Source of the DNA: an uncultured Solibacteraceae bacterium
GTDB taxonomy: Bacteria > Acidobacteriota > Vicinamibacteria > Vicinamibacterales > SCN-69-37
NCBI GenBank assembly: GCA_964471115.1
Contig: CAYYFE010000016.1
Location: 6,874 to 70,873, forward strand
Length of the DNA: 64,000 nt
Reading direction: 5' to 3'
Shown: positions 68 through 54,587 of the stretch, in pieces
How the letters are laid out: the number at the start of each line of letters is the position of its first letter
Numbering within the stretch: the stretch's first letter is position 1
Program-made: the position numbers and the translations under genes
The notes under the pieces: generated by a model
The model's input: the letters and a program-made list of their open reading frames with translations, nothing else
What the model was told of the DNA's origin: nothing
The model's database searches: none

Positions 68-1804
68 ATGCGGGATCTACGAGCCTCGATCGGACGTCGT
101 GTGTGTGTGGCCGTGCTGGCGATCGTCGCCGGGCTGGCCGCGCCGGTTCACACGCAGCAGCAGCTGCGCACGCAGGCGGAGGAGTCCAACTGGACGGCCT
201 ACACCCGCCACGAGAACATGCTGGCCTACATGCGCGCGCTGCAGGCCACCACGCGCGACATGCGGACGACGTCGTACGGCCGGTCACATGAAGGCCGCGA
301 CCTGCCGCTGGCGATCTTCGCGCGGCCGATGGTCACGCAGCCGTGGGAAGCCATGGCCTCGGGCAAACCCATCATCATGTTCCAGACCAACGTGCACGGC
401 GGCGAACGCACGCAGCGCGAGTCGATCCTGCAGCTCATGCGCGAACTGGTCACGCCGGGCACCGAGCCGAACAAGGCGCTGGATCACGTCATCCTGCTCA
501 TCGCGCCGCAGATCAATCCGGATGGCTTTGAAGCCAGTCAGAACGGCCAGCGCGGCAACGCGTGGGGCATCGACCTCAATCGCGACTACATCAAGCTGGA
601 ACAGCCCGAAATCGCCAATGTGGTCACCAACGTGTACCACCAGTGGTATCCGCACCTGATCATCGACGGCCACAACGGCGGCGCGCGGCCCTACAACATC
701 AACTACGTCACGACCGCGAATGCCTCGGTCGATCAGGCGCTGGTCACCATCGCCAACAACGAGATCTTCCAGCACGTGCGCACGCGCAACGAGGAAGCCG
801 GGCTGAAGGCCTTCTTCTACCCGGGCGGCAACGCCGAGTTCTGGCAGGGGGTGCCGGCGTATCCCCGCATCGGCATGACCTACGCGACGTTCCTCAACAG
901 CTTCGGCATCACGTTCGAGTCACCGGCGCAGCCGATGGAAACGGGCGTGCGGTCGGGCCTCATCAGCTACAAGGCCGTGCTCGAGTGGGTGGTGGCCAAC
1001 CGGCGGAAGGTGCTCGACACGGTGACGGCCGCGCGTCAGAAAACCGTCGAGATGGGGCTGACCGCCGACGGCGAAGTCATGGTGGCGATGGAGCAGGTGG
1101 ACCACGACTTCACGGTGAGCTACGAGATTCCCGATCCGCAGAACCAGGGCCAGTTCATCACCATTCCCAACGGCAAGCTGCGCACCAAGCCGAACGTGCT
1201 GGCCGCGCGCCCGCGCCCGTACGCCTACATCCTGCCGAGGGAGGCGGTGCAGGCCGTGGCGCTGCTGCGCCAGCACAACATCACCGTGGAGGTGCTGCGC
1301 GAACCGAAGGCGCTGACCGTGCAGGCCTATGAACTGGGCGACGTCTTCTATCGCACCGAATACGACCATCAGGGCGCGACCACCGTCACCGTCAAGGCCG
1401 TGCACACGGTGGAGCGCACGTTCCCGGCCGGCACCTACGTCGTGTCGACGGCGCAGATGCTGGGACGCCTGGTGGCGCATCTGCTTGAACCGGAGAGTGA
1501 CGACAACGTCGTGCTCTGGAATCGCATGGACGCGTGGCTGCCGACGTCGCGCATCCGTCCCGCGCCGGCGAATCTGATTCCCGAAGCGTGGCCCGGCCGC
1601 GGCCAGGGCGCGGGCCCCGCCGGTGCCGCAGCCGCAGGCGCGGGCGCGGCTCAGGGCCGCGGGGCCGGCCGTGGCGCCGGTGCCGGCGATCCCGAAGCCC
1701 AGCCGCCCGCTCGCGGCGGCCGCGGTGGCGCACCTCAGCCGCCGCTGATTCCGATCTTCAAGCTGATGAACCGCACGCCGCTGCCGGCGGTGTTGGTGAA
1801 ATGA
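68..1804 (+). CDS. Secreted M14-family zinc carboxypeptidase-like protein with Gly/Arg-rich C-terminal insert
   Basis: Signal-peptide-like N-terminus; zinc motif NVHGGE (HxxE), NPDG, DLNRD and IDGH; GGAGG RBS at 56-60. Confidence 0.85.
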   Translation: MRDLRASIGRRVCVAVLAIVAGLAAPVHTQQQLRTQAEESNWTAYTRHENMLAYMRALQATTRDMRTTSYGRSHEGRDLPLAIFARPMVTQPWEAMASGKPIIMFQTNVHGGERTQRESILQLMRELVTPGTEPNKALDHVILLIAPQINPDGFEASQNGQRGNAWGIDLNRDYIKLEQPEIANVVTNVYHQWYPHLIIDGHNGGARPYNINYVTTANASVDQALVTIANNEIFQHVRTRNEEAGLKAFFYPGGNAEFWQGVPAYPRIGMTYATFLNSFGITFESPAQPMETGVRSGLISYKAVLEWVVANRRKVLDTVTAARQKTVEMGLTADGEVMVAMEQVDHDFTVSYEIPDPQNQGQFITIPNGKLRTKPNVLAARPRPYAYILPREAVQAVALLRQHNITVEVLREPKALTVQAYELGDVFYRTEYDHQGATTVTVKAVHTVERTFPAGTYVVSTAQMLGRLVAHLLEPESDDNVVLWNRMDAWLPTSRIRPAPANLIPEAWPGRGQGAGPAGAAAAGAGAAQGRGAGRGAGAGDPEAQPPARGGRGGAPQPPLIPIFKLMNRTPLPAVLVK

Positions 1805-1849
1805 TGAAGTGATGAAGTGCTGACGTGCTGGGGTGCTGAGGTGCTCAGG
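1802..1849 (+). repeat. Degenerate 8-bp tandem array, 6 units (TGATGAAG x2, TGCTGACG, TGCTGGGG, TGCTGAGG, TGCTCAGG)
   Basis: Read directly; starts at the M14 stop codon and contains the stop of the four-helix-bundle gene. Confidence 0.85.
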
Positions 1850-2243
1850 TGCGCTTGTGGCGGAGGCGCTCCTTTGGAGTTGGCGTGTTCTGAAGGTATC
1901 GACGCAGCCGATTGGTGACATCGATGGTCTCGGCGATCTGCGCCGTGAGACTACCGTGTTCCTCCGAGCTGATGTAGCCCTTCGCGGACGCTTCTTCACA
2001 GAGATCGAGTAGTTCGTTGAGCGAACCCAGACTGATCACGGTGAATCGCGCGAAGTCGGGATGCCGATACCGTCCGAAGCCCTCCGCCAGATTGCGGCAG
2101 GCGGAACTGCTGGCTGAATCGAACTGGTCACGAAACTTCAGATCGCCCGCGATCGCCCTGCGCTGACACAAGCTGATGACGGCCTTCCGCACGGCGGAAG
2201 CCGACTGCCACGCCCTAAGGTCCTTGAAGCTTGAGACTCCCAT
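1845..2243 (-). CDS. Four helix bundle protein (TIGR02436 / 23S rRNA IVP-like; structural relatives include DGR Avd)
   Basis: MGVSSFKDLRAWQ...FRDQFDSASSSACRNLAEGFGR...FARFTVISLGSLNEL matches the family pattern (F.DL..WQ, DQ..RA..S...NIAEG.GR, A.GSL.E); start set at the Met at 2243. Confidence 0.88.
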   Translation of the reverse strand: MGVSSFKDLRAWQSASAVRKAVISLCQRRAIAGDLKFRDQFDSASSSACRNLAEGFGRYRHPDFARFTVISLGSLNELLDLCEEASAKGYISSEEHGSLTAQIAETIDVTNRLRRYLQNTPTPKERLRHKRT

Positions 2244-2255
2244 GCCGACGGACGT

Positions 2256-2271
2256 TGCAGGCGCTATGCCA
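2256..2271 (-). promoter_or_regulatory. Putative sigma54 (-24/-12) promoter of the four-helix-bundle gene
   Basis: Minus strand TGGCATAGCGCCTGCA = GG-N10-GC, close to consensus TGGCAC-N5-TTGC. Confidence 0.45.
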
Positions 2272-2332
2272 GCGCCAAGCCACGTCTGACGCCGCCAGTA
2301 CGCGATTTCTGCCACCCTGTCTGCTATTGGCG

Positions 2333-2406
2333 CCCCCCCGCCCCCCCGCCCCCCAGCACCCCAGCACCCCAGCACCCCAGCACCCCAGCACCCCAGCACC
2401 CCAGCA
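2333..2406 (-). repeat. (CCCCAGCA)7 array at 2351-2406, preceded by (C7G)2; reverse complement of the 1802-1849 array
   Basis: Seven perfect 8-mers read directly; the minus strand reads (TGCTGGGG)7. Confidence 0.95.
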
Positions 2407-6269: not shown

Positions 6270-6276
6270 CGCCCGT

Positions 6277-8166
6277 ATGCGCGCACTCACTCTGCTGGTG
6301 GCCGGTGTCTTCCTCCTGCTGATCGCTCCTGTGACGGCCCAGCGGCCGCCGGTGATGGGCCGCAATGCGGCGGTGTCCGCCGGACATCCACTGGTGACGT
6401 CAGCCGCCATGGAGATCCTGCAGGCAGGCGGCAACGCGTTTGACGCGGGGGTCGCCGCCATGTTCGTCGGCGGCGTGGTGGAACAGGATCTGTACGGCCT
6501 GGGCGGCGAAGGACTCGTGCTGGTGTACCCGAAGTCGGAGGGCACGGTGACCTCGGTCGTGGGGCAGGGCTGGGCGCCGAGAGGCGCCACCATCGACTGG
6601 TACACCTCGCGCGGTCGCACGCTGGAAGGTGAGGGGCTGGACCCGGTCGTTGTCCCCGGCGCCATTCATGCCGCGCTGACCGTACTCGAACGGTGGGGCA
6701 CCATGACGGTCGCGCAGGTCACGCGACGAGCCGTGGAATATGCGCGCGACGGCTTTGCCCTGCGCCCGCGCACCGCCCGCGCCATCGTGGGCCAGCGGCG
6801 CTTCATCGATCGGTGGCCCACCAATCAGCAGATGTGGCGCAAGAGTGACGGCAGCGACTACGAGGCCGGTGACACGATCACCATGCCCGACCTGGCGGCC
6901 ACCCTGCAGAAGCTCGTGGACGCCGAGCGGCAGGCGTCCGCCGCGGGCCGCGCGGCCGGCATCACCGCGGCGCGCGACCGGTTCTACAAGGGCGACATCG
7001 CCAAGGAAATCGTCGCGTTCCTCCAGCAACACGGGATGCCGTGGGATGTCAGTGACTTCGCCGAGTTCTACTCACGCGTCGAGCCGGCCACCTCGATCAC
7101 CTATCGCGGGTATCAGGTCTACAAGCAGGGCTTCAATTCGCAGGGCCCCTCCATGTTGCAGGCCCTGAACATCCTCGAGACCTACGACCTGCGGCAGCTG
7201 GGCCACAACTCCGCGGATTACCTGCACGTGGTGACCGAAGCGCTCAAGATGGGCTACGCGGATCGGGACACGTACTATGCCGATCCGCAGTTCGTGGACG
7301 TTCCCGCTACGGGACTGTTGTCGAAGGGGTACGCGAAGCAGCGGGCGTCGCAGATCGACATGGCGCGCGCGCAGACCGAGCAGGTGGCCGGCGATCCGCT
7401 GCCGTTTGACGACAAGGTCAAGTCCTGGGGGTATTGGCGGGCAGGGCACGTGGCGGCGGGTGGCGGCGAGTGGCAGCAAATGGCGGCGAGTGGCGGGGAG
7501 TTGCGGCAAGTGGCGGCGAGTGGCGGCGAGGGTGGAGCAGTGCGGCCGGGGGACGCGGACCCGTCGCTCAAGGACACGACGCACATTGCGATCATCGACA
7601 GGGACGGCAACGTGTTTGATGCGACGCCGTCGGGCGGCTGGATCACGGGCGGTGTGGTCGCCGGCAACACCGGCATCGGATTGTCGACCCGCGGGGAGCA
7701 GTTCTGGCTCGATCGCACGCGCGCGGCCCAGCTGCGCCCGCGGTCCCGGCCGCGCTACACCCTGACACCCAGCCTCGTGCTGCGCAACGGCCAGCCCGTG
7801 ATGGCCATCGGCACCCCCGGTGGCGACAACCAGGAGCAGACCATTCTGCAGACGCTGCTCAACGTCCTGGAATTCCAGGACCGCTGGTATCCCAACCTGC
7901 ACACGGCGTTCGAACTGCCGCGCCTGCAGACGTTCCACTTCCTCGGGTCATTCTGGCCGCACCGGATCGACGCCAACCGGCTCGACCTGGAAACGGGCAT
8001 CGCACCCGACGTGCTGGAATCCCTCAAGGCGCGCGGGCACAACGTGCGTTTCGTGCCCGCGCTGTCGATCAGCGGTTGCGCGACCGCCGTGTGGATCGAT
8101 CCGCGCACCGGCACTCGCATCGCCGGCGCCGACCCGCGCCGCGACTGCTACGCGGCAGCGTATTGA
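6277..8166 (+). CDS. ggt: Gamma-glutamyltransferase family protein (Ntn hydrolase)
   Basis: GGNAFDA, GLGGEG, DTTHIAIIDRDGN (N-terminal nucleophile Thr), AIGTPGG, GADPRRD; signal peptide from 6277. Confidence 0.9.
   Translation: MRALTLLVAGVFLLLIAPVTAQRPPVMGRNAAVSAGHPLVTSAAMEILQAGGNAFDAGVAAMFVGGVVEQDLYGLGGEGLVLVYPKSEGTVTSVVGQGWAPRGATIDWYTSRGRTLEGEGLDPVVVPGAIHAALTVLERWGTMTVAQVTRRAVEYARDGFALRPRTARAIVGQRRFIDRWPTNQQMWRKSDGSDYEAGDTITMPDLAATLQKLVDAERQASAAGRAAGITAARDRFYKGDIAKEIVAFLQQHGMPWDVSDFAEFYSRVEPATSITYRGYQVYKQGFNSQGPSMLQALNILETYDLRQLGHNSADYLHVVTEALKMGYADRDTYYADPQFVDVPATGLLSKGYAKQRASQIDMARAQTEQVAGDPLPFDDKVKSWGYWRAGHVAAGGGEWQQMAASGGELRQVAASGGEGGAVRPGDADPSLKDTTHIAIIDRDGNVFDATPSGGWITGGVVAGNTGIGLSTRGEQFWLDRTRAAQLRPRSRPRYTLTPSLVLRNGQPVMAIGTPGGDNQEQTILQTLLNVLEFQDRWYPNLHTAFELPRLQTFHFLGSFWPHRIDANRLDLETGIAPDVLESLKARGHNVRFVPALSISGCATAVWIDPRTGTRIAGADPRRDCYAAAY
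7451..7530 (+). repeat. 10-bp tandem array, consensus TGGCGGCGAG, 8 units, inside the GGT coding sequence
   Basis: Units aligned at 7451, 7461 ... 7521. Confidence 0.9.
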
Positions 8167-11584: not shown

Positions 11585-13102
11585 CTACTGCAGCAACAGG
11601 CCGGCGCCGGGTCCCAGCGGCAGGCCGAAGGTGAACCAGAGCGCCAGCAGCGCGCTCCAGATGGTGAGGAAGACGACCGAATACGGCAGCATCGTGGCGA
11701 TGACGGTGCCCATGCCGGCCTTCTTGTCGTACTTCTCGAAGAACGCGACGATCAGCGCGAAGTAGGACATCATCGGCGAAATGATGTTGGTCGTGCTGTC
11801 GCCCACGCGGAAGGCGGCCTGCGTCAGTTCAGGCGTGTAGCCGAGCAGCATGAACATCGGCACGAACACCGGGGCCATGATCGCCCACTTCGCCGAGGCG
11901 CTGCCCATGAAGAGGTTGATGAACGCCGTGAGCAGGATGAACATCACCATCAGCGGCGCGCCGCCCAGCGCGGATTCGCGCAGGACGTCGGCGCCCTTCA
12001 CGGCGAAGATCAGTCCCAGGTTGCTCCAGTTGAAGAACGCGACGAACTGCGCCGCGAAGAACACCAGCACCAGGTAGCCACCCAGGCCGCTGATCGACTT
12101 GCCCATGCCGGACATCACGTCCGCGTCGTTCTTGAAGGTGCCCGCCCCGAACCCGTACGCGGCGCCGGCCACGACGCCGAGCAGGAAGATCAGCGCGACG
12201 ATGCCCGACATGAACGGCGACCGGAGGAGATCGCCCGTCTGTGGATCGCGCAGGAAGCCGTCGCCCGGCACCGTGCCCCACAACACGATGGCCGCCAGCA
12301 CCAGCGTGGCGATGCCGGCCCAGCGCAGGCCGCGCCGTTCCAGATCATTGAGGCCCTCAATCGCCTCCGCCTTCGACGCGCCGGCGTATTCGCCCAGCCG
12401 GGGGACGACGATGCGTTCGGTGACCCACGTGCCGGCAATCGTGAGCAGCGGCGTCGACACCGCCATGAAGTAGTAATTGGCCGCCGCGTTGACGGCATAG
12501 TCGGGACGCACGATGCGCGCGGCCTCTTCCGACAGGCCCGCCAGCAGCGGGTCCACGGTGCCCAGCAGCAGGTTGGCGCTGTAGCCGCCCGACACACCCG
12601 CAAACGCGGCCGCCATGCCCGCGATGGGATGCCGCCTGGCGCCGAGGAAGATGAGGCCCGCCAGCGGCACCAGAAGGACGTACCCGAGTTCGCTGGCCAT
12701 GTTCGACATGACACCCGCGAACACCAGCACCGAGGTCAGCAGCCGCGGCGGTGCCGAGAGCACGAGCAGCCGCAGGCTGGCGCTCATCAGGCCCGACGCT
12801 TCCATCGCGCCGATGCCCAGCATCGCCACCAGCACCGTGCCCAGCGGCGCGAAGCCCGTGAAGTTGGTGACCAGGTTGGTGAGAATGCGATGCAGGCCCG
12901 AGAGGCTCAGCAGGTCGACCGGCGTAATCGTCGCGCCCGTGCCGGGGTGGACGGCCGAGATGCCCGACATCGCGGCAAACGACGACACCACCACGACGCC
13001 CAGCGCGAACAGGGCAAACAGCGAGGCGGGATGGGGCAGCGCGTTGCCGCCCTTCTCCACGACGTTCAGGAAGACGGTCAGCCAGCTCCGGCGTGCAGTC
13101 AT
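11585..13102 (-). CDS. abgT: AbgT family transporter
   Basis: [45 protein letters not shown] motifs. Confidence 0.92.
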
Positions 13103-13121: not shown

Positions 13122-13233
13122 CCCGCGAGCCCACCAGCCCACGAACCCACGAACCCACGAGCCCACGAGCCCACGAGCCCACGAACCCACAAGCCCACGA
13201 GCCCACGAACCCACAAGCCCACGAGCCCACGAT
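13122..13233. repeat. 8-bp tandem array, consensus CCCACGAR, 14 units
   Basis: Fills the gap between the K+ channel stop and the AbgT promoter. Confidence 0.95.
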
Positions 13234-14924: not shown

Positions 14925-14940
14925 AGTGGAAGGATCATGA

Positions 14941-14968
14941 AGGGATCAGGGACGAGGGACAAGGGAAA
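14941..14968. repeat. 7-bp degenerate array (AGGGATC/AGGGACG/AGGGACA/AGGGAAA)
   Basis: Four units read directly. Confidence 0.6.
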
Positions 14969-14988
14969 ATGGAGGGGCCGAGGGAGCA

Positions 14989-15044
14989 ATCGATGGATCA
15001 ATGGATCAATGGATCGATGGATCGATGGATCGATGGATCGATGG
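14989..15044. repeat. 8-bp tandem array ATCRATGG, 7 units
   Basis: Read directly; ends 8 nt before the DUF2200 ATG. Confidence 0.95.
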
Positions 15045-17864: not shown

Positions 17865-18500
17865 TTACGAGACATCCGGGGGTGTGGTTCGGTTCCGCGC
17901 GTGGAGCAGGCCCACCGCCAGCACCCCCGACCACAGCAGGAACGCGTAGAGGAAGACGCGTTCGACCACGCCGACCCCCGGTGTGGGCCGCTGCCAGATC
18001 ATGAGCGGGACGTACACAAACGTGCCGAGGCCGAACAGGAACGCGACGGGAGTCACCAGTCGCGAGAATCGACGGAACCGGTTCCCCAGCGCGTTCGTGC
18101 CGGCGAACATGGTCGCGGTCAGCAACAGCACCATCAGCGCGCCCATCGCGATGTGACCGGCGTCAGTCACCGCGAAGGCGTCGCCGCGTTGATGCATCGG
18201 CACGAACGACCACAGCGGCCCCGAGAGGACAAACGCGACCATCAGCCAGCCGAGCACCCGCACCTGCGGGCGCGTGCGGCCTTCAAGGACGATGGCGGTG
18301 GTGAAGGCGGTGAAGAGGAAGGCGTAGACCTGCAGAAACGCGCCCCACAACGCCGCGGTCGGCGCGCCAACGGCCGACAGTTCGCTGATGACCTGATGCG
18401 CGAAGCTGTAGTTGGGATAGCGGAGTCCGCAGACGACATCCGCGGCGATGTAGACGACCGGCGACAACGCGCCCAAGACGAGCAGCAGGGTTCGAACCAC
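17865..18500 (-). CDS. DUF998 family membrane protein
   Basis: YSFAHQVISELSAVGAP, several TM segments, GVVER; GTG start at 18500 preferred, alternative ATG at 18551. Confidence 0.7.
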   Translation of the reverse strand: MVRTLLLVLGALSPVVYIAADVVCGLRYPNYSFAHQVISELSAVGAPTAALWGAFLQVYAFLFTAFTTAIVLEGRTRPQVRVLGWLMVAFVLSGPLWSFVPMHQRGDAFAVTDAGHIAMGALMVLLLTATMFAGTNALGNRFRRFSRLVTPVAFLFGLGTFVYVPLMIWQRPTPGVGVVERVFLYAFLLWSGVLAVGLLHARNRTTPPDVS

Positions 18501-18550
18501 GGCAGTGGTGCTCCCGGCCCCGGGCGGAGAGGCCCTGCTCTGAGCATACA

Positions 18551-18640
18551 TGGTGCCGGGGGTGGGAATCGAACCCACACGTCCCTGTGGGGGACTCGGG
18601 ATTTTAAGTCCCGTGCGTCTGCCAGTTTCGCCACCCCGGC
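18551..18640 (-). tRNA. trnL: tRNA-Leu (anticodon TAA), 90 nt, CCA encoded
   Basis: GCCGGGG acceptor stem, anticodon arm CGGGA-CTTAAAA-TCCCG, long variable arm, T-loop TTCGATT, ACCA end. Confidence 0.97.
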
Positions 18641-18683
18641 AGGGGGCTGAGTGAAGGTAGCACGGGGGGATGGGAGTTATTTG

Positions 18684-18761
18684 GGATTGAGGATTGAGGA
18701 TTGAGGATTTGTCCGCACTTCGCACTTCGCACTCCGCACTCCGCACCGATCGATCCTCAAT
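18684..18761 (+). repeat. Composite 7-bp array (GGATTGA)3-4 + (CGCACTY)4-5 + inverted ATCCTCAAT
   Basis: Read directly; near-copy in reverse orientation at 31615-31712. Confidence 0.9.
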
Positions 18762-18790
18762 TCGAATAGAATCTCCCCCAGGAGCGTCCC

Positions 18791-20154: not shown

Positions 20155-20160
20155 AGGTCA

Positions 20161-20216
20161 CAGGGCGCAGGGCGCAGGGCACAGGGCACAGGGATCAGGG
20201 AACAGGGATCAGGGTG
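20161..20216. repeat. 7-bp tandem array CAGGGNN, 8 units
   Basis: Between convergent genes; overlaps the MgtC stop codon. Confidence 0.9.
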
Positions 20217-21445
20217 AACCCGCCCACGCCGAGCACGAGGGCCATGGCCAGCAGGCCGGCGAAGGCCAGGCCGCGATACACGCCCTGACCGAGCACCAGG
20301 GCGAGTCCGGCCTTGAAGATCGTGTTCGAGAGGATGCCCAGCGTCAGCGCGGCGGCGGCCGCGCGCAGATCCGCGCCGTCAGCCGCGCGCTGCGCCATCG
20401 ACACCGTCAACGCGTCCACGTCCGTCAGGCCCAGCACGGCGGCCGAGCCGAACAGGCCGGCCGCCCCGAAGCGGTCCTCGGCCAGCGCCACGATGATCAG
20501 CACGATCTGAAACGCCACGGCCATCTGCAGCGCGGCCGAGACCTGCAGCGGGTTGTCCTGTGCCGGCGCCTTGTGCGCCGTGTCCGACGTCCGGATGCCG
20601 CGCGCCAGCAGCAGCAAACCGATGGCCACCGGTCCAAGGAAGACGGGCCAGATGGCCGCCGCCAGCGACGGCGCCAGCACCGCGGCGGCGACCAGCACCC
20701 GAGGAAACAGCGTGACGTTGGCGCCCATCACTCCGGCGGCCAGCGCCAGTCCCGCTTCGGGATGCGCGCGGCTCAACCGCGAGAACGTCAGCGTCACCGA
20801 GGTGGACGACACCAGGCCGCCCAGCGCGCCCGCCACGGCGTACCCGCGGCGGGCTCCCCAGGCGCGGCGGGCGAGGAACCCGAGAAAACTCAATCCCGAG
20901 AAAAAGAGCACCAGCATCCACAGCTGACGCAGACGGATGCCCTCGAACGATCCGACGGGCCAGATCGGATCGGCGGGCAGCAACGGCAGAATCACGGTGG
21001 CCATCACCGCAAATCGCGCCGCCGAGATGAGTTCGGTTTCGCCCAGCCGGCTGACCAGGCCGTGCAGGCGGGATTTCTCGGCCAGCAGCAGCACCGTGAC
21101 GGCCGTGATGGCCGACGCCACCGTCGGCTGGCCATACCCGGCCAGCACCCCCGCCACGACGACCACCAGCGCGGCGACTTCGGTCGTGGCGTCGACATCG
21201 CCACGGCTGGCCGACACGTACGCGGCGATCACAATGCCGACCAGGCCGGCCAGAAGCACCGTCGCCGGTCCCTCCATGCCGGTGCCCAGCCACCAGCCCG
21301 CGATGCCGGCGACCAGGCCCATCATCGTGAACGTGCGCAGCCCGCCGAACCGGGCGTTCACGCCGGTGGCGTGGCCGCTCCATTGCCGTTCCACGCCGAC
21401 GGCCAGGCCGGTCAGCGTGGCGATGACGAGCGCGTCGAGGGGCAT
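20195..21445 (-). CDS. MgtC/SapB family membrane protein with DUF4010 domain
   Basis: GLAVGVERQW, GGLRTF, DATTEVA, GGLVSSTSVT, GLTDVDA. Confidence 0.88.
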   Translation of the reverse strand: MPLDALVIATLTGLAVGVERQWSGHATGVNARFGGLRTFTMMGLVAGIAGWWLGTGMEGPATVLLAGLVGIVIAAYVSASRGDVDATTEVAALVVVVAGVLAGYGQPTVASAITAVTVLLLAEKSRLHGLVSRLGETELISAARFAVMATVILPLLPADPIWPVGSFEGIRLRQLWMLVLFFSGLSFLGFLARRAWGARRGYAVAGALGGLVSSTSVTLTFSRLSRAHPEAGLALAAGVMGANVTLFPRVLVAAAVLAPSLAAAIWPVFLGPVAIGLLLLARGIRTSDTAHKAPAQDNPLQVSAALQMAVAFQIVLIIVALAEDRFGAAGLFGSAAVLGLTDVDALTVSMAQRAADGADLRAAAAALTLGILSNTIFKAGLALVLGQGVYRGLAFAGLLAMALVLGVGGFTLIPVP

Positions 21446-26298: not shown

Positions 26299-26334
26299 GG
26301 ACCCCGCCGGACCTCGGACCCTGGACCATACAAT
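26299..26334 (+). promoter_or_regulatory. Degenerate GGACCNN repeats ending in a -10 box (TACAAT 26329-26334) for the tesA operon
   Basis: Read directly. Confidence 0.45.
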
Positions 26335-27076: not shown

Positions 27077-27753
27077 TGATTGAACTTGTCGAGGTGTCCC
27101 GCACCGTCACCGGCGGTGCCGGGCCGCTCACCATCCTGCATCCCACGTCGCTGACGATCGCCGCGGGCCGCATTGTCGCGATCACCGGGCCGTCGGGCAG
27201 CGGCAAGTCGACGCTGCTCGGGCTGCTGGCCGGCCTCGACACCCCGACCACCGGCCGCGTGGTCATCGACGGCGTCAACATCACCGCGCTGGGCGAAGAG
27301 GCGCTGGCCGCGTTGCGCGGCGAGAAGATCGGCATCGTCTTTCAGTTCTTCCACCTGATTCCCTCGCTGACTGCGCGCGAGAACGTGATGGTGCCGATGG
27401 AACTGGCCGGCGTGGCGGATGCGCGCGCGCGCGCCGAGGCGCTGCTCGCGGAAGTCGGGCTCTCCGAACGCGGCCACCACTATCCGTCGCAACTGTCGGG
27501 CGGCGAACAGCAACGCGTGGCCATCGCCCGCGCGCTGGCCAACGATCCGCCGATCCTGCTGGCCGACGAACCCACCGGCAATCTGGACTCCGCCACCGGC
27601 CACCATGTCATCGACCTGCTGCTCTCGGTGAACCGCCGGCAGGGCCGCACGCTGGTGCTCGTGACACACGATCCCGAACTGGCCGCGCGCGCCGATGAGG
27701 TCATCGCCCTGCGCGATGGGAGGGTGCAAGTGGCGGCAAGTGGCGGCGAGTAG
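27076..27753 (+). CDS. ybbA: ABC transporter ATP-binding protein (YbbA-like)
   Basis: GPSGSGKS, LSGGEQQRV, LADEPTGNLD. Confidence 0.9.
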   Translation: MIELVEVSRTVTGGAGPLTILHPTSLTIAAGRIVAITGPSGSGKSTLLGLLAGLDTPTTGRVVIDGVNITALGEEALAALRGEKIGIVFQFFHLIPSLTARENVMVPMELAGVADARARAEALLAEVGLSERGHHYPSQLSGGEQQRVAIARALANDPPILLADEPTGNLDSATGHHVIDLLLSVNRRQGRTLVLVTHDPELAARADEVIALRDGRVQVAASGGE

Positions 27754-27780
27754 CGGCGAGTGGCGGCGAGTAGCGGCATG
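27731..27780 (+). repeat. 10-bp array TRGCGGCRAG, 5 units
   Basis: Contains the ybbA TAG (27751) and the ybbP ATG (27778). Confidence 0.9.
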
Positions 27781-31216: not shown

Positions 31217-31621
31217 GTGGCGCCCGTCAGGGTGGCCATTGCCCTCGGCAGCAACCTGGGCGACCGCGACGCGCACCTGCGGTTCGCCATCACCCGCCTG
31301 CGCAGCGTCCTGTCCGACATGCGCGTCTCGTCGTTCCACAACACCCCGGCCGAAGGCGTCGACGAGCCGCAGCCGGACTACCTCAACGCCGCCGTGTCCG
31401 GCACCACGACGCTGTCGCCGCGCGAGCTGCTCACGTTCATGCTCGACGTGGAACGGCAGCGCGGCCGCACCCGCCTCTCCCCGCGGGCCTCACGCACGCT
31501 CGATCTCGACCTGATTTTTTACGGGGACCAGACGATCGACGAACCCGACCTGACCGTGCCGCACCCGCGCTGGCACACACGCGACTTCGTCACGCGGCCG
31601 TTGGGGGAAGTGTGGGATTGA
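31217..31621 (+). CDS. folK: 2-amino-4-hydroxy-6-hydroxymethyldihydropteridine diphosphokinase
   Basis: IALGSNLGDR, QPDYLNA, RTLDLDL, VPHPR..TRDFV. Confidence 0.93.
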   Translation: MAPVRVAIALGSNLGDRDAHLRFAITRLRSVLSDMRVSSFHNTPAEGVDEPQPDYLNAAVSGTTTLSPRELLTFMLDVERQRGRTRLSPRASRTLDLDLIFYGDQTIDEPDLTVPHPRWHTRDFVTRPLGEVWD

Positions 31622-31712
31622 GGAGTGCGGAGTGCCGAGTGCGGAGTGCGAAGTGCGAAGTGCGGGGATTGAGGAGTGGGGAAGTCCTCAATCCCCAATC
31701 CTCAATCCTCAA
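31615..31712 (-). repeat. Composite array GGATTGA/(RAGTGCG)6/GGATTGA/(TCCYCAA)4
   Basis: Reverse complement closely resembles 18684-18761. Confidence 0.9.
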
Positions 31713-31718
31713 TAACAA

Positions 31719-34289: not shown

Positions 34290-34305
34290 GAATTCAACTC
34301 CTCAA

Positions 34306-34372
34306 CTCGCCGCTACTGGCCGACACTCGCCGCCACTTGCCGCCACTTGCCGCCACTCGCCGCTACTCGCTA
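34306..34372 (-). repeat. 10-bp array of the TGGCGGCGAG family, 6 units plus a partial unit, minus strand
   Basis: Begins at the adaptor gene's TAG. Confidence 0.88.
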
Positions 34373-36121
34373 CCGCCCGCCGCCGCGGCCACCGCCGCCG
34401 GTGGGGCCGCCCATGCCGCCCATGCCGGGCATGCCGCCGCGGCCCTGCTGGCCCGAGAACGGGTTGCCCTGCGTCGAGCCGGTGGTGGCCGTGGCCTGCA
34501 GCCACGGCATCAGGATGTTGGTGATGAGCTCGGTGCCCACCGCCAGCTCGGGCGGGCCCGAGACCAGTTCGGTGAACGTGCCGTCGGTGATGCCCTGCAT
34601 CACGTCCAGGCGCTCGAGCGTGCCGAACGGATGGGTGGCATCGGCCGGACGCAACACGTACACCTGGCCGCGCGTGGGATTGCGCACGAGCGGCGGGAAC
34701 AACTCATCGATGTTCTGCACGCCGCGCTGGGTGAGCGGCGCGACCGGGCCGGTCTGGCCGTTGTTGCCGGCGCGTCCGCCTCGTCCGGCCCCGCCGCCGC
34801 GGCCGCCTTCACGACCGCCGAACGTGATGCCCGCGCGGCGCATCGCTTCCGCGCGCTGTTCCTGCGGCAGCTGACGGATGGCCTCCATCGCCTTCTGCTG
34901 TTCGGGCGTGAGGTTCATCCCCATGCCGCCCCCCTGGCGTCCACCGTCGCGGCCACCACGGGCGAAGGGGTTGTCACCCGAGGCCTGGCCGCCCTGGCGT
35001 CCCGGCGTCGCGGCCGCCGGCTGGGGCGCGCCGCTCTGCGGCTGGCCCGACCCGGAGCCGGCCTGCGGCGCCGCGGATCCCTGACCCGAGGGCGCGCCGC
35101 CGTTGCGGCCCGGACCCGCGCCGCGGCCGGGCGGCGTCGGCGGCTCCTGCTTGAGCGTCGTCCACATGTCGTTGTTGGGACGGAAGCGGAGGGCCGCGTT
35201 CGGAATGCGCAGCACGTTGTCGCGCCGCGCCACTTCGATGCGCATCTGCGCGGTCTGGCCGGGCTTGAGCCGCAGGTCGTTGTTCTGCACCTCGACCACC
35301 GTCGTGTACGTCACGACGTTGGACTGGACCGTCGGATTGAGGCGCACCCGCGTCACCGTCCCGAAGAAGTCCTGGTTCGGATACGCGTCCACGTTGAAGC
35401 GCACGGTCATGCCCGTGCGCACCTTCCCGATTTCGGATTCGTCCACGCCGCCTTCCAGGCGCAGCTTCGTCAGGTCCGTCGCCACGTCGAAAAACGGCGT
35501 GGCCGTCTGCGAGCCGACGATCGTCTGGCCGCGGTCCACGCGCCGGTTGATGATGACGCCGTCGATGGGGGAGACGATGGTCGCTTCCTTGACGTTGAGT
35601 TCCGCCTGGGCGAGGTTGGCCTCCGACTGCACCTTCGACTTCTCGGCCGAGGCAATCTGGGCTTCGCGGCTGCTCACCTGCAGCTTCGCGGCCTCGAGCT
35701 GCTGTTCGGTCACCAGCTTGGCGGCATACAGCTTCTCGGTGCGGGCCAGGTTGGCCTTCGAGTCGGCCAGCTGCACGCGCTGGTTCTCGAGGTCGACCTC
35801 CTGCCGGGCGATGTTCGCCTTCTGGATTTCCACCTGCGTCTGCAGCTGGTCGGTGTTGATCTGCGCCAGCACCTGGCCGGCGCGCACCACCTGGTTGAAG
35901 TCGGCGTTGAGCTGTTCGATGACGCCCGACACCTTCGAGCCGACCACCACCATGCGGTCGGGCTGCAGCGTGCCCGTGGCGCTCACGATTTCGACCACAT
36001 CCCCCTGCGAGATGGTGGCCTTCATGAACTCCGGCACCTGCGGCGCCTGCTGGCTCTGGTAGTAGTAATACCCGCCGCCCGCGGCGGCAAGGACAACGAC
36101 GAGGTAAATCAGCTTTTTCAT
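34370..36121 (-). CDS. MacA-like efflux periplasmic adaptor with long Gly/Arg-rich inserts
   Basis: SATGTLQP, GSKVSG, IVSPIDG, VDESEIG, LKPGQTA; start MKKLIY at 36121. Confidence 0.9.
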   Translation of the reverse strand: MKKLIYLVVVLAAAGGGYYYYQSQQAPQVPEFMKATISQGDVVEIVSATGTLQPDRMVVVGSKVSGVIEQLNADFNQVVRAGQVLAQINTDQLQTQVEIQKANIARQEVDLENQRVQLADSKANLARTEKLYAAKLVTEQQLEAAKLQVSSREAQIASAEKSKVQSEANLAQAELNVKEATIVSPIDGVIINRRVDRGQTIVGSQTATPFFDVATDLTKLRLEGGVDESEIGKVRTGMTVRFNVDAYPNQDFFGTVTRVRLNPTVQSNVVTYTTVVEVQNNDLRLKPGQTAQMRIEVARRDNVLRIPNAALRFRPNNDMWTTLKQEPPTPPGRGAGPGRNGGAPSGQGSAAPQAGSGSGQPQSGAPQPAAATPGRQGGQASGDNPFARGGRDGGRQGGGMGMNLTPEQQKAMEAIRQLPQEQRAEAMRRAGITFGGREGGRGGGAGRGGRAGNNGQTGPVAPLTQRGVQNIDELFPPLVRNPTRGQVYVLRPADATHPFGTLERLDVMQGITDGTFTELVSGPPELAVGTELITNILMPWLQATATTGSTQGNPFSGQQGRGGMPGMGGMGGPTGGGGRGGGR

Positions 36122-44048: not shown

Positions 44049-44160
44049 GGTCCAACGGGTCCAACGGGTCCAACAGGTCCAACAGGTCCAACAGGTCCAA
44101 CAGGTCCAACAGGTCCAACGGGTCCGGACCTGATGGACCTGTAGGACCCGTTGGACCCTG
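44049..44160. repeat. 9-bp array (GGTCCAACR)8 followed by 4 inverted units; symmetry centre GGTCC|GGACC at 44125/44126
   Basis: Read directly. Confidence 0.95.
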
Positions 44161-45413: not shown

Positions 45414-45452
45414 TCCTGAAGTGAGGATACGGCGAAAGGGTACTATCGTTTA

Positions 45453-45515
45453 CAGGGCACAGGGCGCAGGGCACAGGGCACAGGGCACAGGGCACAGGGC
45501 ACAGGGCACAGGGCG
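45453..45515. repeat. 7-bp array (CAGGGCR)9
   Basis: Begins 1 nt after the SpoIID stop. Confidence 0.95.
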
Positions 45516-52000: not shown

Positions 52001-52020
52001 TGAGGTGTTCCTTTTCTCGA

Positions 52021-52438: not shown

Positions 52439-52504
52439 CACAGGAGGCACGGAGGCACGGAGAGTTCCTGGCTTGAAACCCTCCGCGTCTCCGCGCCTCC
52501 TGTG
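52439..52504. repeat. Inverted pair of 8-bp repeats (GGAGGCAC-type), 24-bp arms, 18-nt loop
   Basis: CACAGGAGGCACGGAGGCACGGAG / CTCCGCGTCTCCGCGCCTCCTGTG; abuts the stop at 52505. Confidence 0.85.
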
Positions 52505-53092
52505 TCAGGACTGCTTGAGGATGGTCGCCGTGACCTCGAGCGTGACCTTGCGGTCGGTGGCCGGGTCGGCCGACTCGGTGACGATCATCGGCTTGCCGTC
52601 GACCAGTGCGACGGTGATGGACTCGTGCAGCGTTGGAGCCAGGCCGAGGCGCTGGCCGGACGGGCCGGTGGGCCGCGGCGGCGTGTATTCAAAGGTCAGC
52701 CGCACAGAGACCAGCCCATTCTGATAGGCGCTGGCGAGGGCATCGACGTTCAGCGTGGCCTCCGTCTCCCGATTGTTCGTCCGAATCATCCCGCCGTTGC
52801 CGTTGAGCATCACCATCGTCGCGGTCTTCTTGGTGGGCGTGCCACCGTAGTTGTCCGAGAGCGTCAGTTGCAGGCGGATGTTGGTGGAGGCCGGCATGCC
52901 CTGGCTGGTCGGCAGACCCAGTGAGGGCGCGCGGTTGACCGGCGGTGCAGGCGTCGGCGCCTGCGCGGGCGGCGTCGCGCCGCGTTGGCCTGGCACGGCT
53001 GCGGGCGCCTGCGCGCTGGGCGGCGGCGTCTGCGCCGTCAACGGAGCCGCGACGATCGCGGTGATGAGAACGGTGAATACGAGTTTGCGCAT
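52505..53092 (-). CDS. Secreted hypothetical protein with Pro/Ala-rich N-terminus
   Basis: Signal peptide, beta-rich C-terminal domain; third gene of the ECF module. Confidence 0.75.
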   Translation of the reverse strand: MRKLVFTVLITAIVAAPLTAQTPPPSAQAPAAVPGQRGATPPAQAPTPAPPVNRAPSLGLPTSQGMPASTNIRLQLTLSDNYGGTPTKKTATMVMLNGNGGMIRTNNRETEATLNVDALASAYQNGLVSVRLTFEYTPPRPTGPSGQRLGLAPTLHESITVALVDGKPMIVTESADPATDRKVTLEVTATILKQS

Positions 53093-53103
53093 AACGGTTG
53101 CTC

Positions 53104-53673
53104 CTACCTTCGATTCGGGTCGCCGCTGATCGGCGACATCGTCATCGGCGTCACAGTTAATGGAGTGATCGACAGCAGGTCCGGTTGGATCGAATCGAAC
53201 GTCACCGGCTCAATCGCGATCTGTTCCACCGCCAACGCACCAATGGCGGCCAACGCCGGCACGCGCCGCGCTTCCCAGGCCAGTAGTTCGGGGCTGACGA
53301 CCGGCTGTGCGGCGGTTCCGCGGTTCCTGGGTTCCTGGGTTCTGGGGTTCCGTGCCTGGGTTCGTGGGTTCGTGGGTTCGTGAGTTCCGAGGTTCGCCGC
53401 CACAATCGCACTGCCTGCACCCTGTGCACCTTGTGCACCCTGTGGACCCTGTGCACCCTGTGGACCTTGTGGACCCTGTGGACCCTGTGGACCCTGCAGC
53501 CCTTGGATGAGCACGATGACCGTCAGTCCCGCCGCCACGAGTCCGCCCGCCCAGCGCCAGTCGCCGACGCGGCGGCGTCCGGGCGGCGTGGCGGCGTCCA
53601 GCCGCGCGCGAATGCGCGACTCGAGATCCGCCGACGGTTCGACCTCGGTGATCGCCCGCGCCGCGCTCAGCAT
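53104..53673 (-). CDS. Putative single-TM anti-sigma factor with repeat-derived collagen-like segment
   Basis: Follows an ECF sigma; [15 protein letters not shown] helix, (G-X-Q)9-10; start could extend to 53745 within the repeats. Confidence 0.65.
53314..53396 (-). repeat. Degenerate 8-bp array (GGTTCSTG on +, i.e. CCCACGAA family on -), about 10 units, in CDS
   Basis: Same family as 13122-13233. Confidence 0.8.
53413..53502 (-). repeat. 9-bp array GGT-SCA-CAR encoding Gly-Pro/Ala-Gln triplets
   Basis: Ten triplets: [30 protein letters not shown]. Confidence 0.92.
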
Positions 53674-53761
53674 CTCGTCATCTCGCCATGTCGTCATGTC
53701 GCCACCTCGCCACCTCGCCACCTCGCCATCTCGCCATCTCGTCATCTCGTCATCTCGTCAT
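53671..53761 (-). repeat. 8-bp array (CAYCTCGY on +; RTGRCGAG on -), about 12 units
   Basis: Spans from the sigma stop codon to the anti-sigma ATG. Confidence 0.92.
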
Positions 53762-54366
53762 GTGCGGGTGCGCAGCACACGTCGTGCTTCGGCGACGCGC
53801 CACTTCACGGTGCCGGACGGCACGCTCAGCATCACGGCAATTTCGTCGTACGTGTATTCGCCCGACGCGGCCAGGAGCAGCGTGTCGCGCAGTTTGGGCG
53901 TGAGGCCGGCAATCGCGGCGCGCAGGGCCGCGGCCTCGGCGCGGGCGGCGGCCACGCGCTCCGGGTCGGCGGCGTCCGACGCCATCCGGTCCAGTCCATC
54001 GCCCGCGGCCTCGTCAGCCGGGGTGACACGGCGCCGCCACCAGCGGTCGCGAGACTTGCGCCGGTCGAGCGCCTGCCGCCAGGTGATGGTCAGCAGCCAC
54101 GTCTTGAACGTCGAGTCCCCGCGAAAATCCCCGACCTTCCGCCAGGCCAGCACGAACGCGTCCTGCGCCACCTCTTCGGCGTCCTCGGGCCGCTGCAGCG
54201 CCGCCATGGCGGTGCGGAAGACCGTGCGGAAGTACAGGGACACCAGCGCGTCGAACGCCGCGCGGTCGCCGGCTTGCGCGGCCCGTACCCAGGCGCGCAC
54301 CTGCGGCGTTTCTCCCTCCAGGGGCCGGACAACGGGCGACTCGTCAGCGTCGGGCGTGACGGTCAT
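53758..54366 (-). CDS. ECF RNA polymerase sigma-70 factor
   Basis: [43 protein letters not shown]; start may be 54366 or 54396. Confidence 0.92.
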
Positions 54367-54441
54367 GGCCGGAATGGTCGCAACACGCGGCAGCACCGTC
54401 CCAGTAGACCGCCGGGCGGGCCGGATGGTTGGGTCGGCCGG

Positions 54442-54587
54442 AAGGGCACAGGCAACAGGGCGCAGGGCACAGGGAACAGGGAACAGGGAGACCTTTGGCC
54501 AAATGTGGCCTGTGGCCTGTGGCCTGTGGCCTGTGGCTTGCGGCCTTCGGCCTGTGGCCTGTGGCCTGTAGCCTGTAACCTGTAAGC
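54442..54587. repeat. Inverted pair of 7-bp arrays: (CAGGGNR)7 at 54442-54490 and (TGTGGCC)12 at 54504-54587
   Basis: Read directly; the spacer contains the palindrome TTTGGCCAAA. Confidence 0.92.

Follow-up and report, generated by a model that had tools for sequence, protein, structure and literature searches.

Short tandem arrays at gene boundaries of a soil acidobacterial chromosome as probable arms of IVS-like repeat elements

Intervening sequences (IVSs) with an S23p open reading frame lie in the 23S rRNA genes of Leptospira, Coxiella and Brucella, in helix 45, 25 or 9. Foldback (FB) transposons of eukaryotes have long terminal inverted repeats made of short tandem subrepeats; the arms differ in length from copy to copy, a central segment can be missing and in some copies bears a gene, and many copies are free of coding sequence. 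The Coxiella IVS combines the S23p frame with tandem heptamers at its 5' end, the number of which varies between strains, and RNase III excises it at the first repeat, cutting in the stem (PMC4990558). Heptamer simple sequence repeat (SSR) arrays are intergenic, often <50 bp from a stop codon and variable in copy number, and frequently form convergent inverted pairs (PMC4692102).

We analysed a 64 kb stretch of a soil acidobacterial chromosome (the window), in which an inverted pair around a four-helix-bundle gene suggests where such repeat arrays originate. Tandem Repeats Finder (TRF) detected 22–28 arrays of 7–10 bp units, the count varying with the settings. The strict setting (period 6–11, ≥3.5 copies, score ≥50) gave 22 arrays in 64 kb and none in 67 of the 80 control loci, which were centred on PEPCK and drawn from many phyla; laxer settings gave 4.4 arrays per 10 kb in the window compared to 0.5–0.7 per 10 kb in the controls. 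The window is about 94–95% coding, 1100 of the 1427 array bases are non-coding, and arrays make up 35% (about a third) of its non-coding bases. A stop codon lay inside or ≤5 nt from 10 of 18 array clusters; 5000 random placements gave 1.15 such clusters on average and never more than 6. Start codons or divergent promoters host the clusters at 14940–15044, 18684–18746, 26299 and 54443–54585, and in-frame intragenic arrays occur in the gamma-glutamyltranspeptidase (GGT) gene (7450–7530) and an anti-sigma gene (53314–53496).

Units, compared in any rotation and on either strand, recurred far more than composition predicts. Exact unit pairs numbered 5 (0.17 expected), and pairs that differ by at most one mismatch numbered 14 (2.6 expected; 0/2000 simulations reached 14). 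Shared 8-mers supported the TGGCGGCGAG family at three sites, the CAGGGCA family at three sites plus 14940, CCCACGAR at two, in opposite orientation at the second (53357), and the GGATTGA+CGCACTY composite likewise at two. The two composites, at 18684–18770 (+) and 31615–31713 (−), are 13 kb apart and align end to end over about 100 bp, with unit variants in identical order and shared flanks. Folding was much stronger than in shuffled sequence (z −3.7 to −10.6) for the inverted pairs 1797/2335, 31615–31713, 44049/44126, 52443/52480 and 54443/54504; about half of the window arrays are solo, with no inverted partner. An earlier note, made from the letters of the window, had described about 20 short arrays at gene junctions, most of them at or close to a stop codon, in these same recurring families and partly in an arm-loop-inverted arm arrangement. 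That observation was confirmed, as TRF placed an array at 19 of its 20 positions; the remaining one, 26299, is weak, and the listed position 53413 corresponds to the array 53419–53496.

The only gene-bearing pair, hereafter the cassette, consists of the following features.

1797–1852 (+): 3' arm, array (TGARGTGC) x6 (TRF), GCACYTCA on the gene's strand
1845–2243 (−): four-helix-bundle gene, the cargo, 132 aa (PF05635 23S_rRNA_IVP; TIGR02436)
2256–2271 (−): sigma-54-like −24/−12 motif TGGCATAGCGCCTGCA, score 17, ending 12 nt before the ATG
2335–2406 (+): 5' arm, array (CCCCAGCA) x9 (TRF), TGCTGGGG on the gene's strand

The gene belongs to the family of the 'S23p' of 23S rRNA IVSs, related to Avd, and the solved structure closest to its protein is 2GSC/XCC0516. 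The arms span stop codon to stop codon: the 3' arm includes that of an M14 peptidase (1802–1804), and that of a CarboxypepD_reg gene (2407–2409) directly adjoins the 5' arm. The arms share 7 inverted 8-mers, and the whole 623-nt cassette transcript folds with the 5' arm on the 3' arm (dG −311, z −8.6). The remaining arrays are as follows.

7450–7530 (+): array (GTGGCGGCGA) x8 (TRF), in frame in the GGT gene, directly preceding the catalytic Thr (DTTH)
13122–13232 (+): array (CCCACGAR) x14 (TRF), GGYTCGTG on the transcribed strand; fills the junction bounded by the stop of a TrkA-channel gene (13236) and the start of AbgT (13102)
14940–15044 (+): adjacent arrays (AAGGGAC) x4 and (ATCGATGG) x7 (TRF), divergent promoter region
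18684–18770 (+): composite (GGATTGA) x3.7, (CGCACTY) x5, then TCCTCAAT (TRF, alignment), between tRNA-Leu and an NfeD gene
20155–20214 (+): array (CAGGGCR/CAGGGAW) x8 (TRF), from the Band7 stop and overlapping the MgtC stop; convergent junction
26299–26327 (+): weak GGACC-type array, 3–4 imperfect copies read in the sequence; absent from the TRF list at minimum score 30
27726–27778 (+): array (GTGGCGGCRA) x5 (TRF), includes an ABC ATPase stop (27751–27753) and extends to a permease gene start
31615–31713 (+): inverted form of the 18.7 kb composite, GGATTGA, (GRAGTGC) x6, then a GGATTGAGGA / TCCTCAATCC hairpin (TRF, fold z −5.2); fills a convergent junction from the HPPK stop onward
34305–34384 (−): TGGCGGCGAG-family array, inverted (TRF, shared 8-mers), between an HlyD stop (34370) and an ABC ATPase start (34289)
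44049–44157 (no strand): hairpin in which (GGTCCAACR) x8.6 runs straight into (GGACCYGTT) x3.6 (TRF; dG −76, z −7.3), anti-sigma / IspH junction
45452–45514 (+): array (CAGGGCA) x9 (TRF, shared 8-mers), abutting the SpoIID stop (45517)
52443–52500 (no strand): inverted pair (GGAGGCAC) x2.5 and (CCTCCGCG) x2.6 (TRF; dG −57, z −10.6), the stem measuring about 30 bp; the stop of gene 52505–53092 (−) is 5 nt away
53314–53396 (+): arrays (GGTTCCKG) x5 and (TGGGTTCG) x4 (TRF), translated in the anti-sigma frame
53419–53496 (+): array (GCACCCTGT/GGACCCTGT) x8.7 (TRF), encoding the (GPQ)n linker of the anti-sigma frame
53671–53761 (+): array (CATCTCGY) x11 (TRF), across an ECF sigma stop and the anti-sigma start
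54443–54585 (no strand): imperfect inverted pair (CAGGGMA) x6.7 and (TGTGGCC/CCTGTAR) x10 (TRF; z −3.7), upstream of RNase R

The same layout was found around related genes elsewhere. Three homologues (41–55% identity) have a cassette arranged as in the window. Among 80 metagenomic loci examined, an array lay upstream in 55/71 and downstream in 53/70; both sides carried arrays in 39/61, reverse-complementary in 31 of these 39, and array density was 16.8 per 10 kb beside the gene compared to 1.5 elsewhere on the same contigs. Many of the contigs with four-helix-bundle genes are very short. Arrays also accompanied 16/16 plasmid-borne copies from cultured organisms (both sides in 15, inverted in 12–13), which cover Cyanobacteriota, Bacteroidota and Gemmatimonadota as well as Azospirillum (genera Nostoc, Anabaena, Calothrix, Trichormus, Pseudanabaena, Picosynechococcus, Stanieria, Geminocystis, Riemerella, Gemmatirosa and Azospirillum). 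The host of the Azospirillum lipoferum copy is a gene for 23S rRNA (Rfam LSU, 2548 bits); the arms of this copy are heptamer arrays, and its fold is a closed stem (z −10.5). The median distance between cassette arms and flanking stop codons is about 3 nt, the sigma-54-like motif occupies a fixed position in 69–85% of cassettes compared to 2.5–14% of controls, and a palindromic leader motif, GTACGCAGAAACTGCG, occurs at −90 to −140. The arm unit core is conserved across proteins 35–55% identical, with variable spacer and period (7, 8 or 9 nt), and protein clades agree with unit core, period, leader length and features such as nested arms ([A][B]-gene-[B'][A']). These results strongly support the cassette as a conserved, widespread architecture that extends across phyla and to a genuine 23S rRNA IVS, with an arm unit type inherited along the gene lineage. 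Of the partner genes that the earlier note had named, the four-helix-bundle gene thus went with arrays at most metagenomic loci and every plasmid copy, and none of about 50 ORFs scanned was a RAYT, reverse transcriptase or GxxExxY gene.

Compared to the described 23S IVSs, the window cassette has the same gene family (PF05635/TIGR02436) and the same placement of the frame in the loop of a long stem formed by terminal inverted repeats, and the fetched Azospirillum copy is itself such an IVS with heptamer-array arms. In contrast, it lies between two protein-coding genes and not in rRNA, each arm is a long array (6–9 copies in the window, and elsewhere as many as 23), a sigma-54-like promoter forms part of it, and many gene-less arrays are present besides it; cleavage by RNase III is here a prediction. 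The Xanthomonas (GGGAATC) and Nostoc (GGGGAYT) SSRs and cyanobacterial STRR resemble the window arrays in their 7 nt units and many copies per genome, whereas the window has many 7–10 bp families instead of one dominant heptamer, mostly without G3 tracts, shows no four-unit preference and belongs to another phylum. The XCC0516 gene has a GGGAATC array at its annotated start, and heptamer arrays flank the four-helix-bundle genes of Nostoc, Anabaena and Calothrix; two papers on heptamer arrays (PMC4692102, PMC4679880) make no mention of such a gene. The likeness to FB transposons is one of architecture only, the host here being bacterial and the units shorter, with no transposase found and no target-site duplication seen. 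REP/BIME, MITE and MIRU elements are likewise small, foldable non-coding repeats that colonise intergenic or operon junctions, MIRU even those with overlapping stop and start codons. However, a REP is one imperfect palindrome of 20–40 bp that bears a GTAG/CGTC head and is partnered by a RAYT, MITEs are bounded by unique TIRs and show target duplications, MIRU units measure 40–100 bp, and none of these is made of 7–10 bp tandem units or carries a four-helix-bundle gene. PMC9879509 describes pervasive, fast-evolving tandem repeats between and within genes of Borgs, including intragenic disordered linkers comparable to the anti-sigma (GPQ)n and the GGT insert; the origin it reports is independent at each site, whereas window units recur across loci and also form inverted pairs, in another host and replicon.

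We therefore favour, at a probability of about 0.55, the reading that the arrays are arms, and probably also relics, of IVS-like, foldback-type repeat elements. The complete form would comprise a 5' array, a leader with a sigma-54-like promoter, a TIGR02436/PF05635 gene and a reverse-complementary 3' array, with arm units of 7–10 bp. The window would then hold one complete copy (1797–2406), arm-loop-arm hairpins without a gene (five or six) and solo arrays (about eight), the last being half-elements or independent offshoots. Such elements may enter gene boundaries as DNA, and their arrays may later lengthen or shorten through slipped-strand mispairing. On read-through from a flanking gene, the arms could anneal, whatever the register, to give a long stem of dsRNA, which host RNase III would cleave, as established for rRNA IVSs; the insert would thereby leave the transcript and be tolerated in rRNA helices and at operon and convergent junctions.

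Dispersal, which the earlier note had preferred over independent slippage, is supported, as opposed to local slippage alone, by four results. Besides the composites, three related Vicinamibacterales genomes have no insert at the anti-sigma / IspH junction: there the genes abut or overlap (0 to −4 nt) where the window has a 131-nt hairpin, which leaves no seed for slippage. In another relative (L183), a solo arm has non-repeat flank sequence in common with a hairpin arm, and cassettes 76–87% identical in DNA occupy unrelated flanks and carry similar arrays. Slippage acts too: the copy-number variation that the earlier note had proposed to check was found between samples, at 6.6 to 17.6 copies at one locus, 9.5 vs 4.5 at a second and 10.2, 11.2 or 13.2 at a third. 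The further claim that gene-less arrays are cassette derivatives was only partly borne out, and the tie of solo arrays to the cassette is the weaker part of the reading. Three cassettes elsewhere (L096, L116, L139) have arms with a unit identical to that of 53419–53496; overall, 8/25 gene-less window units came within one mismatch of cassette-arm units elsewhere (4.1 expected, control maximum 10), which is no better than chance. Inverted arrays bracket a tRNA-Ser gene in L178, so arms are not exclusive to the four-helix-bundle gene, and the roughly half of window arrays with no inverted partner fall outside the stem/RNase III logic. The interpretation of the earlier note is thus partly supported.

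Other observations also count against the favoured reading. No target-site duplication, recombinase, transposase or reverse transcriptase was found, and three array-rich Gemmatimonadales loci have no four-helix-bundle gene within 20 kb. In the close relative L183, the junction of the window cassette is occupied by another four-helix-bundle gene, which faces the other way and has no arrays. Because the sigma-54-like promoter sits between the two arms, a transcript started from it would not include the 5' arm. G.U-type mismatches between arms were not specific to one strand (55 sense, 46 antisense, 115 other), and RNA-level selection is accordingly not demonstrated.

It is possible, although rather unlikely, that the arrays are ordinary long SSRs, each born in place by slipped-strand mispairing in a lineage mutationally biased to 7–10 bp duplications. 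Units would then recur because selection favours certain motifs (G-rich tracts, G-quadruplexes, terminator-like hairpins), and the four-helix-bundle gene would merely lodge in, or acquire, such hairpins. Hypervariable copy number across samples agrees with this, as do a different repeat in the GGT loop of a relative and the lack of a counterpart in cassette arms for most window units. Long 5–11 bp SSRs are enriched in large, GC-rich, free-living bacterial genomes, and Xanthomonas GGGAATC arrays lie near stop codons and form 70–75 inverted pairs (PMC4692102). GGG recurs every 7–9 nt in several window families (CAGGGCA, CCCACGAG, CCCCAGCA), but G3 tracts are missing from most. Birth in place also fits poorly with two composites homologous throughout, with the hairpin at a junction left empty in relatives, with a 10-bp unit common to three loci (chance negligible) and with an arm type that follows the gene lineage and moves with the gene to unrelated sites.

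Less probable still is that the arrays are putative binding sites through which an oligomeric protein regulates neighbouring genes, each unit combining a conserved core of 5 nt (for example GGTGC or GGTTC) with a spacer of 2–4 nt. The candidate reader would be the four-helix-bundle protein as a pentamer on DNA or RNA, TRAP-like, or alternatively a sigma-54 enhancer-binding protein. A constant core with variable spacer and period suits this proposal, and so does co-variation of the core with the protein clade, although simple co-inheritance predicts the latter equally. The promoter at fixed distance and the palindromic leader motif also point this way; sigma-54, however, is generally held absent from Cyanobacteria, which have the same arms. 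Arm complementarity without an RNA-specific signature likewise suits the proposal, but operators would hardly be expected within coding regions or at 3' ends, where some arrays lie. PMC4990558, citing Lin 2006, gives the XCC0516 homologue as a toroidal homopentamer; in Coxiella, however, the element persists with a seemingly untranslated ORF (PMC4990558).

Assembly or binning artefacts of a metagenome-assembled genome, finally, are essentially refuted as a source of the arrays. Short-read contigs often break in arrays, and the shortness of many four-helix-bundle-bearing contigs would fit such an origin; an independent Logan assembly of run ERR3494947 (L085) itself ends within the array 53671–53761. 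Yet the same assembly is 100% identical over 53732–57592, covering the arrays 54443–54585, read length exceeds most arrays, frames stay open across the arrays in the GGT and anti-sigma genes, and the architecture recurs in finished plasmids of cultured strains.

The window is a chromosomal stretch with a GC content of 69% that carries housekeeping genes (PEPCK, GatB, RNase R, SelB, NadA/NadC, IspH, HPPK, DksA, GGT and an AcrB-type efflux operon), and its gene order near PEPCK is that of Vicinamibacterales (Acidobacteriota) MAGs, with protein identities of 64–72%. The earlier note had listed 20 positions of short tandem arrays; Tandem Repeats Finder (TRF) returned an array at 19 of them, with 26299 marginal, and revealed short units head to tail in at least three copies, as in long SSRs/VNTRs (unit 5–11 bp). 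The features considered here were located as follows:

1797–1852 and 2335–2406: inverted copies of an array with a TGGGGTGC-type unit
18551–18640 (−): tRNA-Leu(TAA) gene, 44 nt from a composite array
18684–18770 (+): composite array
31615–31713 (−): composite array
34406–34438: 9-bp array (GCCGCCCAT) × 3.7 within the 3′ end of an HlyD-family gene, encoding an MGG-type repeat and adjoining an intergenic array
44049–44157: hairpin array at the anti-sigma/IspH junction

With one set of TRF thresholds, 22 arrays were detected in the window, whereas 67 of the 80 control loci, taken from other bacteria, had none; when the thresholds were relaxed, the density was 4.4 arrays per 10 kb in the window and 0.5–0.7 in the controls. 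The coding share of the window was approximately 94–95%, yet 1100 of the 1427 array bases were non-coding. Arrays thus made up 35% of the non-coding bases, and nearly all intergenic gaps of at least 80 nt were mostly array. The proposed association with stop codons held, as 10 of 18 array clusters contained or touched one (1.15 expected), and others lay at start codons or divergent promoters. Unit families were shared between loci far more often than composition predicts, and they were the families that the note had named; its inverted arrangement was likewise recovered, with several reverse-complementary array pairs predicted to fold as long hairpins.

Three arrays were translated in frame, two of them in an anti-sigma factor, where one is read as (GPQ)n, and one in GGT, where it forms a 27-codon insert directly before the catalytic threonine. 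A repeat insert occupies this GGT loop both in the window (7450–7530) and in L183, a related locus (~21260–21420), with unrelated units (WRRVAASGGE-type and TSGNVFDETAP-type, respectively). The tRNA-Leu gene was the sole Rfam match in the window; the called ORF 17865–18746 (−) overruns it, so the true DUF998 start must be further downstream.

The arrays at 1797–1852 and 2335–2406 enclose a gene for a four-helix-bundle protein of 132 aa (PF05635, TIGR02436), the ORF type expected of an intervening sequence (IVS) in a 23S rRNA gene, whose product is S23p. This cassette exactly fills the gap between two convergent stop codons, with an M14 peptidase gene and a CarboxypepD_reg gene as its neighbours. 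In the predicted fold of its transcript, the two arms were paired (z −8.6), as in the terminal-inverted-repeat stem of an IVS. The window copy does not lie in 23S rRNA helix 9, 25 or 45; no rRNA was found in the window, and an Rfam search with the cassette gave no match even at E ≤ 1. The solved structure closest to the protein was XCC0516, and no relative of the gene was found in viral contigs.

Two relatives differ at this locus. In L183 (M14 81% identical), a different four-helix-bundle gene (11794–12207; 37% identical, 56 aa) occupies the same M14/CarboxypepD_reg junction, inverted and without arrays, accompanied only by the hairpin GGTGTGCAG/CTGCACACC, which suggests that the junction is an insertion hotspot or that a replacement or inversion took place here. 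In L178 (2340–2686; M14 orthologue 86% identical), the downstream neighbour is not that of the window, and the inverted arrays (CCAAGGGT) × 6.5 and (GGACCCTT) × 9.6 surround a tRNA-Ser gene and span the interval between the stop codons of two convergent genes. Arms of this kind are thus found around other genes as well as four-helix-bundle genes. No clean empty site for the whole cassette was present among the relatives examined.

Homologues of the four-helix-bundle gene with 41–55% identity exhibited the same layout. Among 80 metagenomic loci, an array lay upstream in 55/71 and downstream in 53/70, and in loci with both, the two were reverse complements in 31/39. Array density next to the gene was ten times that of the remaining parts of the same contigs, and cassette arrays lay at a median of ~3 nt from the neighbours' stop codons. 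None of the 80 control loci, three array-rich Gemmatimonadales loci included, contained the gene. The Gemmatimonadales MAG loci L029, L042 and L052 carried 5–7 arrays of 7–9 bp per 11–21 kb, with inverted pairs 30–90 nt apart and no four-helix-bundle gene in the fetched 20 kb.

On the gene strand, upstream units carried GGTGC or GGTTC and downstream units GCACC or GAACC, with periods of 7, 8 or 9 nt composed of a conserved core and a variable spacer. The type of unit, its period and the length of the leader tracked the protein tree, and nested double arms occurred in one subclade. A sigma-54-like −24/−12 motif, which in the window lies at 2256–2271, was located at a fixed distance of 28 or 34 nt upstream of the gene start in 69–85% of cassettes, compared to 2.5–14% of controls, and half of the long leaders carried GTACGCAGAAACTGCG ~100 nt further upstream. 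This palindrome, often present twice, was found at −90 to −140 from the gene start (e.g. in loci L098, L101 and L139; window ~2300–2320) and may serve as an enhancer-binding site or form a small RNA hairpin. Genes with 76–87% DNA identity had unrelated flanks and similar arrays; in true orthologues, by contrast, the flanks were more conserved than the cassette. One metagenomic contig (L103) carried a second four-helix-bundle gene (144–503), which is separated from the first by 4.5 kb and closely followed by a GAAC-type array, showing that one genome holds several cassettes of different arm types.

A search of finished plasmids by tblastn identified the gene in heterocystous and other cyanobacteria, Riemerella, Gemmatirosa and Azospirillum. 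In the fetched plasmid copies, 7–8 bp arrays adjoined 16/16 genes, on both sides in 15 and inverted in 12–13, and the cassettes lay precisely at gene junctions (nrdA/nrdB, antisense; cas6/cas4; cas10/cmr3). In Azospirillum, the insertion is within a 23S rRNA gene, so this copy is a classical ORF-bearing IVS; its predicted stem pairs (GAGGACG)n with (CGTCCTC)n. The Coxiella IVS contains an S23p ORF and tandem heptamers whose number differs from strain to strain, and its excision by RNase III begins at the first repeat (PMC4990558). In Xanthomonas, 186 GGGAATC arrays have been described, 70 of them in inverted pairs (PMC4692102). One of these arrays overlaps the annotated start of XCC0516; as ~6% of the genes there have an array listed beside them, the overlap is a lead rather than proof.

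Several comparisons indicate that arrays spread and do not merely lengthen at their own sites. At 18.7 kb and 31.6 kb, the composites are two inverted versions of a single ~100 bp element, sharing the order of unit variants (CTT, CTT, CTC, CTC) and the flanks. The anti-sigma stop and IspH start abut or overlap in three related genomes (TAGGTG in one, TAGTG in two) and are separated by a 131-nt hairpin array in the window; comparison of the filled and empty sites revealed no target-site duplication. In L183, a solo arm, which has no inverted partner, and one hairpin arm have the non-repeat flank GAGAATTYGCCCATTCT in common, and the core GGGTCCAA recurs in another relative at other loci with period 8 instead of 9. 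Slippage acts on top of this spread: as in VNTRs, copy number was polymorphic at related loci, with 6.6, 14.6, 16.6 or 17.6 copies at one locus depending on the sample, 9.5 versus 4.5 at a second, and 10.2, 11.2 or 13.2 at a third. Contigs 100% identical to the window were present in the Logan assemblies of ERR3494947, ERR3494953, ERR3494954 and ERR3494961. Exact-protein look-ups (PEPCK, TrkA channel, NfeD, DUF2200) found no contigs, so copy number of the window's gene-less arrays was compared with the ERR3494947 contig L085 only; this single comparable independent assembly was identical to the window.

Among known classes, the long inverted arms of tandem subrepeats, variable arm length and optional centre of Foldback-type transposons are all seen here, and no candidate for a mobilising transposase was found in the 64-kb window or the fetched loci. 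G-quadruplex heptamers (GGGNATC type), which require G3 in each unit and a preference for four units, were rejected: G3/C3 tracts occurred only in CAGGGCA, CCCACGAG, CCCCAGCA and ACCCTGTGG, and copy numbers ranged from 2.5 to 14. REP/BIME elements with RAYT are imperfect palindromes of 20–40 bp with a GTAG/CGTC head and a RAYT gene in the genome, whereas the present units are direct tandem 7–10-mers, and the scanned ORFs of the window yielded no Y1 transposase. MITEs, which are IS-derived and have unique terminal inverted repeats and a target-site duplication, were rejected because the IspH junction showed no such duplication and no parental IS was found. CRISPR arrays have 23–50 bp repeats and unique spacers, unlike these contiguous, spacerless 7–10 bp units. 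A diversity-generating retroelement (RT, Avd, template/variable repeat pair) was rejected because only an Avd-like protein is present, which scored below the Avd model NF033474; no RT domain turned up in the window ORFs that were scanned.

On the best-supported reading, the window contains a single complete element of the IVS type, located outside rRNA, and also hairpins without an ORF and solo arms that belong to the same broad kind. Such elements would insert at gene boundaries, after which array length would change by slippage. The arms would pair in any register in read-through transcripts, and host RNase III would remove the insert, so that insertion would do no harm in rRNA helices, operon junctions or convergent junctions. 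Caveats to this reading are that half of the window arrays are solo and that the window units gave no significant match overall to cassette arms elsewhere, most being unmatched among the sampled arms. A test for RNA-level selection on the arms, comparing G·U with A·C mismatches, showed no asymmetry and no RNA-specific signal. The tRNA-Ser arrays of L178 and the inverted, array-less gene of L183 are further caveats. The main rival, in which SSRs arose in situ and were shaped by selection and the gene is a passenger, is possible, and so is a reading of the arrays as protein-binding sites.

A broader proposal, which we consider improbable, is that all short-unit intergenic bacterial arrays are arms or relics of one IVS-like mobile class, with a four-helix-bundle protein promoting spread and arms guaranteeing RNase III excision. 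The class would take in the STRR heptamers found in heterocystous cyanobacteria and GGGAATC of Xanthomonas, as well as the 7–10-mers of Vicinamibacterales and Gemmatimonadales. Its sole gene would encode an Avd-like, pentameric four-helix-bundle protein recognising the repeated 5-nt core, a polymerase or reverse transcriptase would possibly act in trans in spread, and the tandem arms would assure excision by RNase III from any host transcript.

Each of the three components, IVS elements, S23p and heptamer arrays, has been described before. The literature covered, which is incomplete, contained no paper in which intergenic tandem arrays outside rRNA are tied to four-helix-bundle genes. Not found in the searchable literature are the joining of the three in one architecture outside rRNA, arms built as long arrays of 7–10 bp units, the sigma-54-like promoter of the cassette and the presence, alongside it, of gene-less arrays as a genome-wide population. 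Two old puzzles may share one answer: the origin of the 23S IVS and its conserved S23p ORF, which 'remains unclear' 25 years on (PMC4990558), and the source of the heptamer-type arrays that abound, with no evident mechanism, in cyanobacteria, Xanthomonas and other bacteria (PMC4679880; PMC4692102). If the arrays are IVS-like arms, rRNA IVSs would be the visible tip of a far larger population between ordinary genes, and about a third of the non-coding DNA in some abundant soil bacteria would be element-derived. Arrays also break short-read assemblies of Acidobacteriota and Gemmatimonadota, offer hypervariable markers and put disordered linkers into proteins.

Several plasmid cassettes lay within CRISPR-cas operons (L185, Anabaena sp. 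90; L187, Pseudanabaena galeata; L194, Picosynechococcus PCC 7003). The domain '23S rRNA IVP' has been listed among CRISPR-linked domains (PMC10910872), and cassettes in cyanobacterial cas operons may be the reason. The same protein, WP_010994075.1, is encoded on plasmids gamma and alpha of Nostoc sp. PCC 7120 (L192, L193), and transposase genes adjoin each of the two copies. The AGGGAAC/CAGGGAA heptamer forms the cassette arms in L199 (Nostoc sp. C052) and in the Anabaena sp. 90 plasmid. An identical unit makes up part of the CAGGGCA/CAGGGAA family of the window (54443–54489), which may reflect convergence or a shared family.
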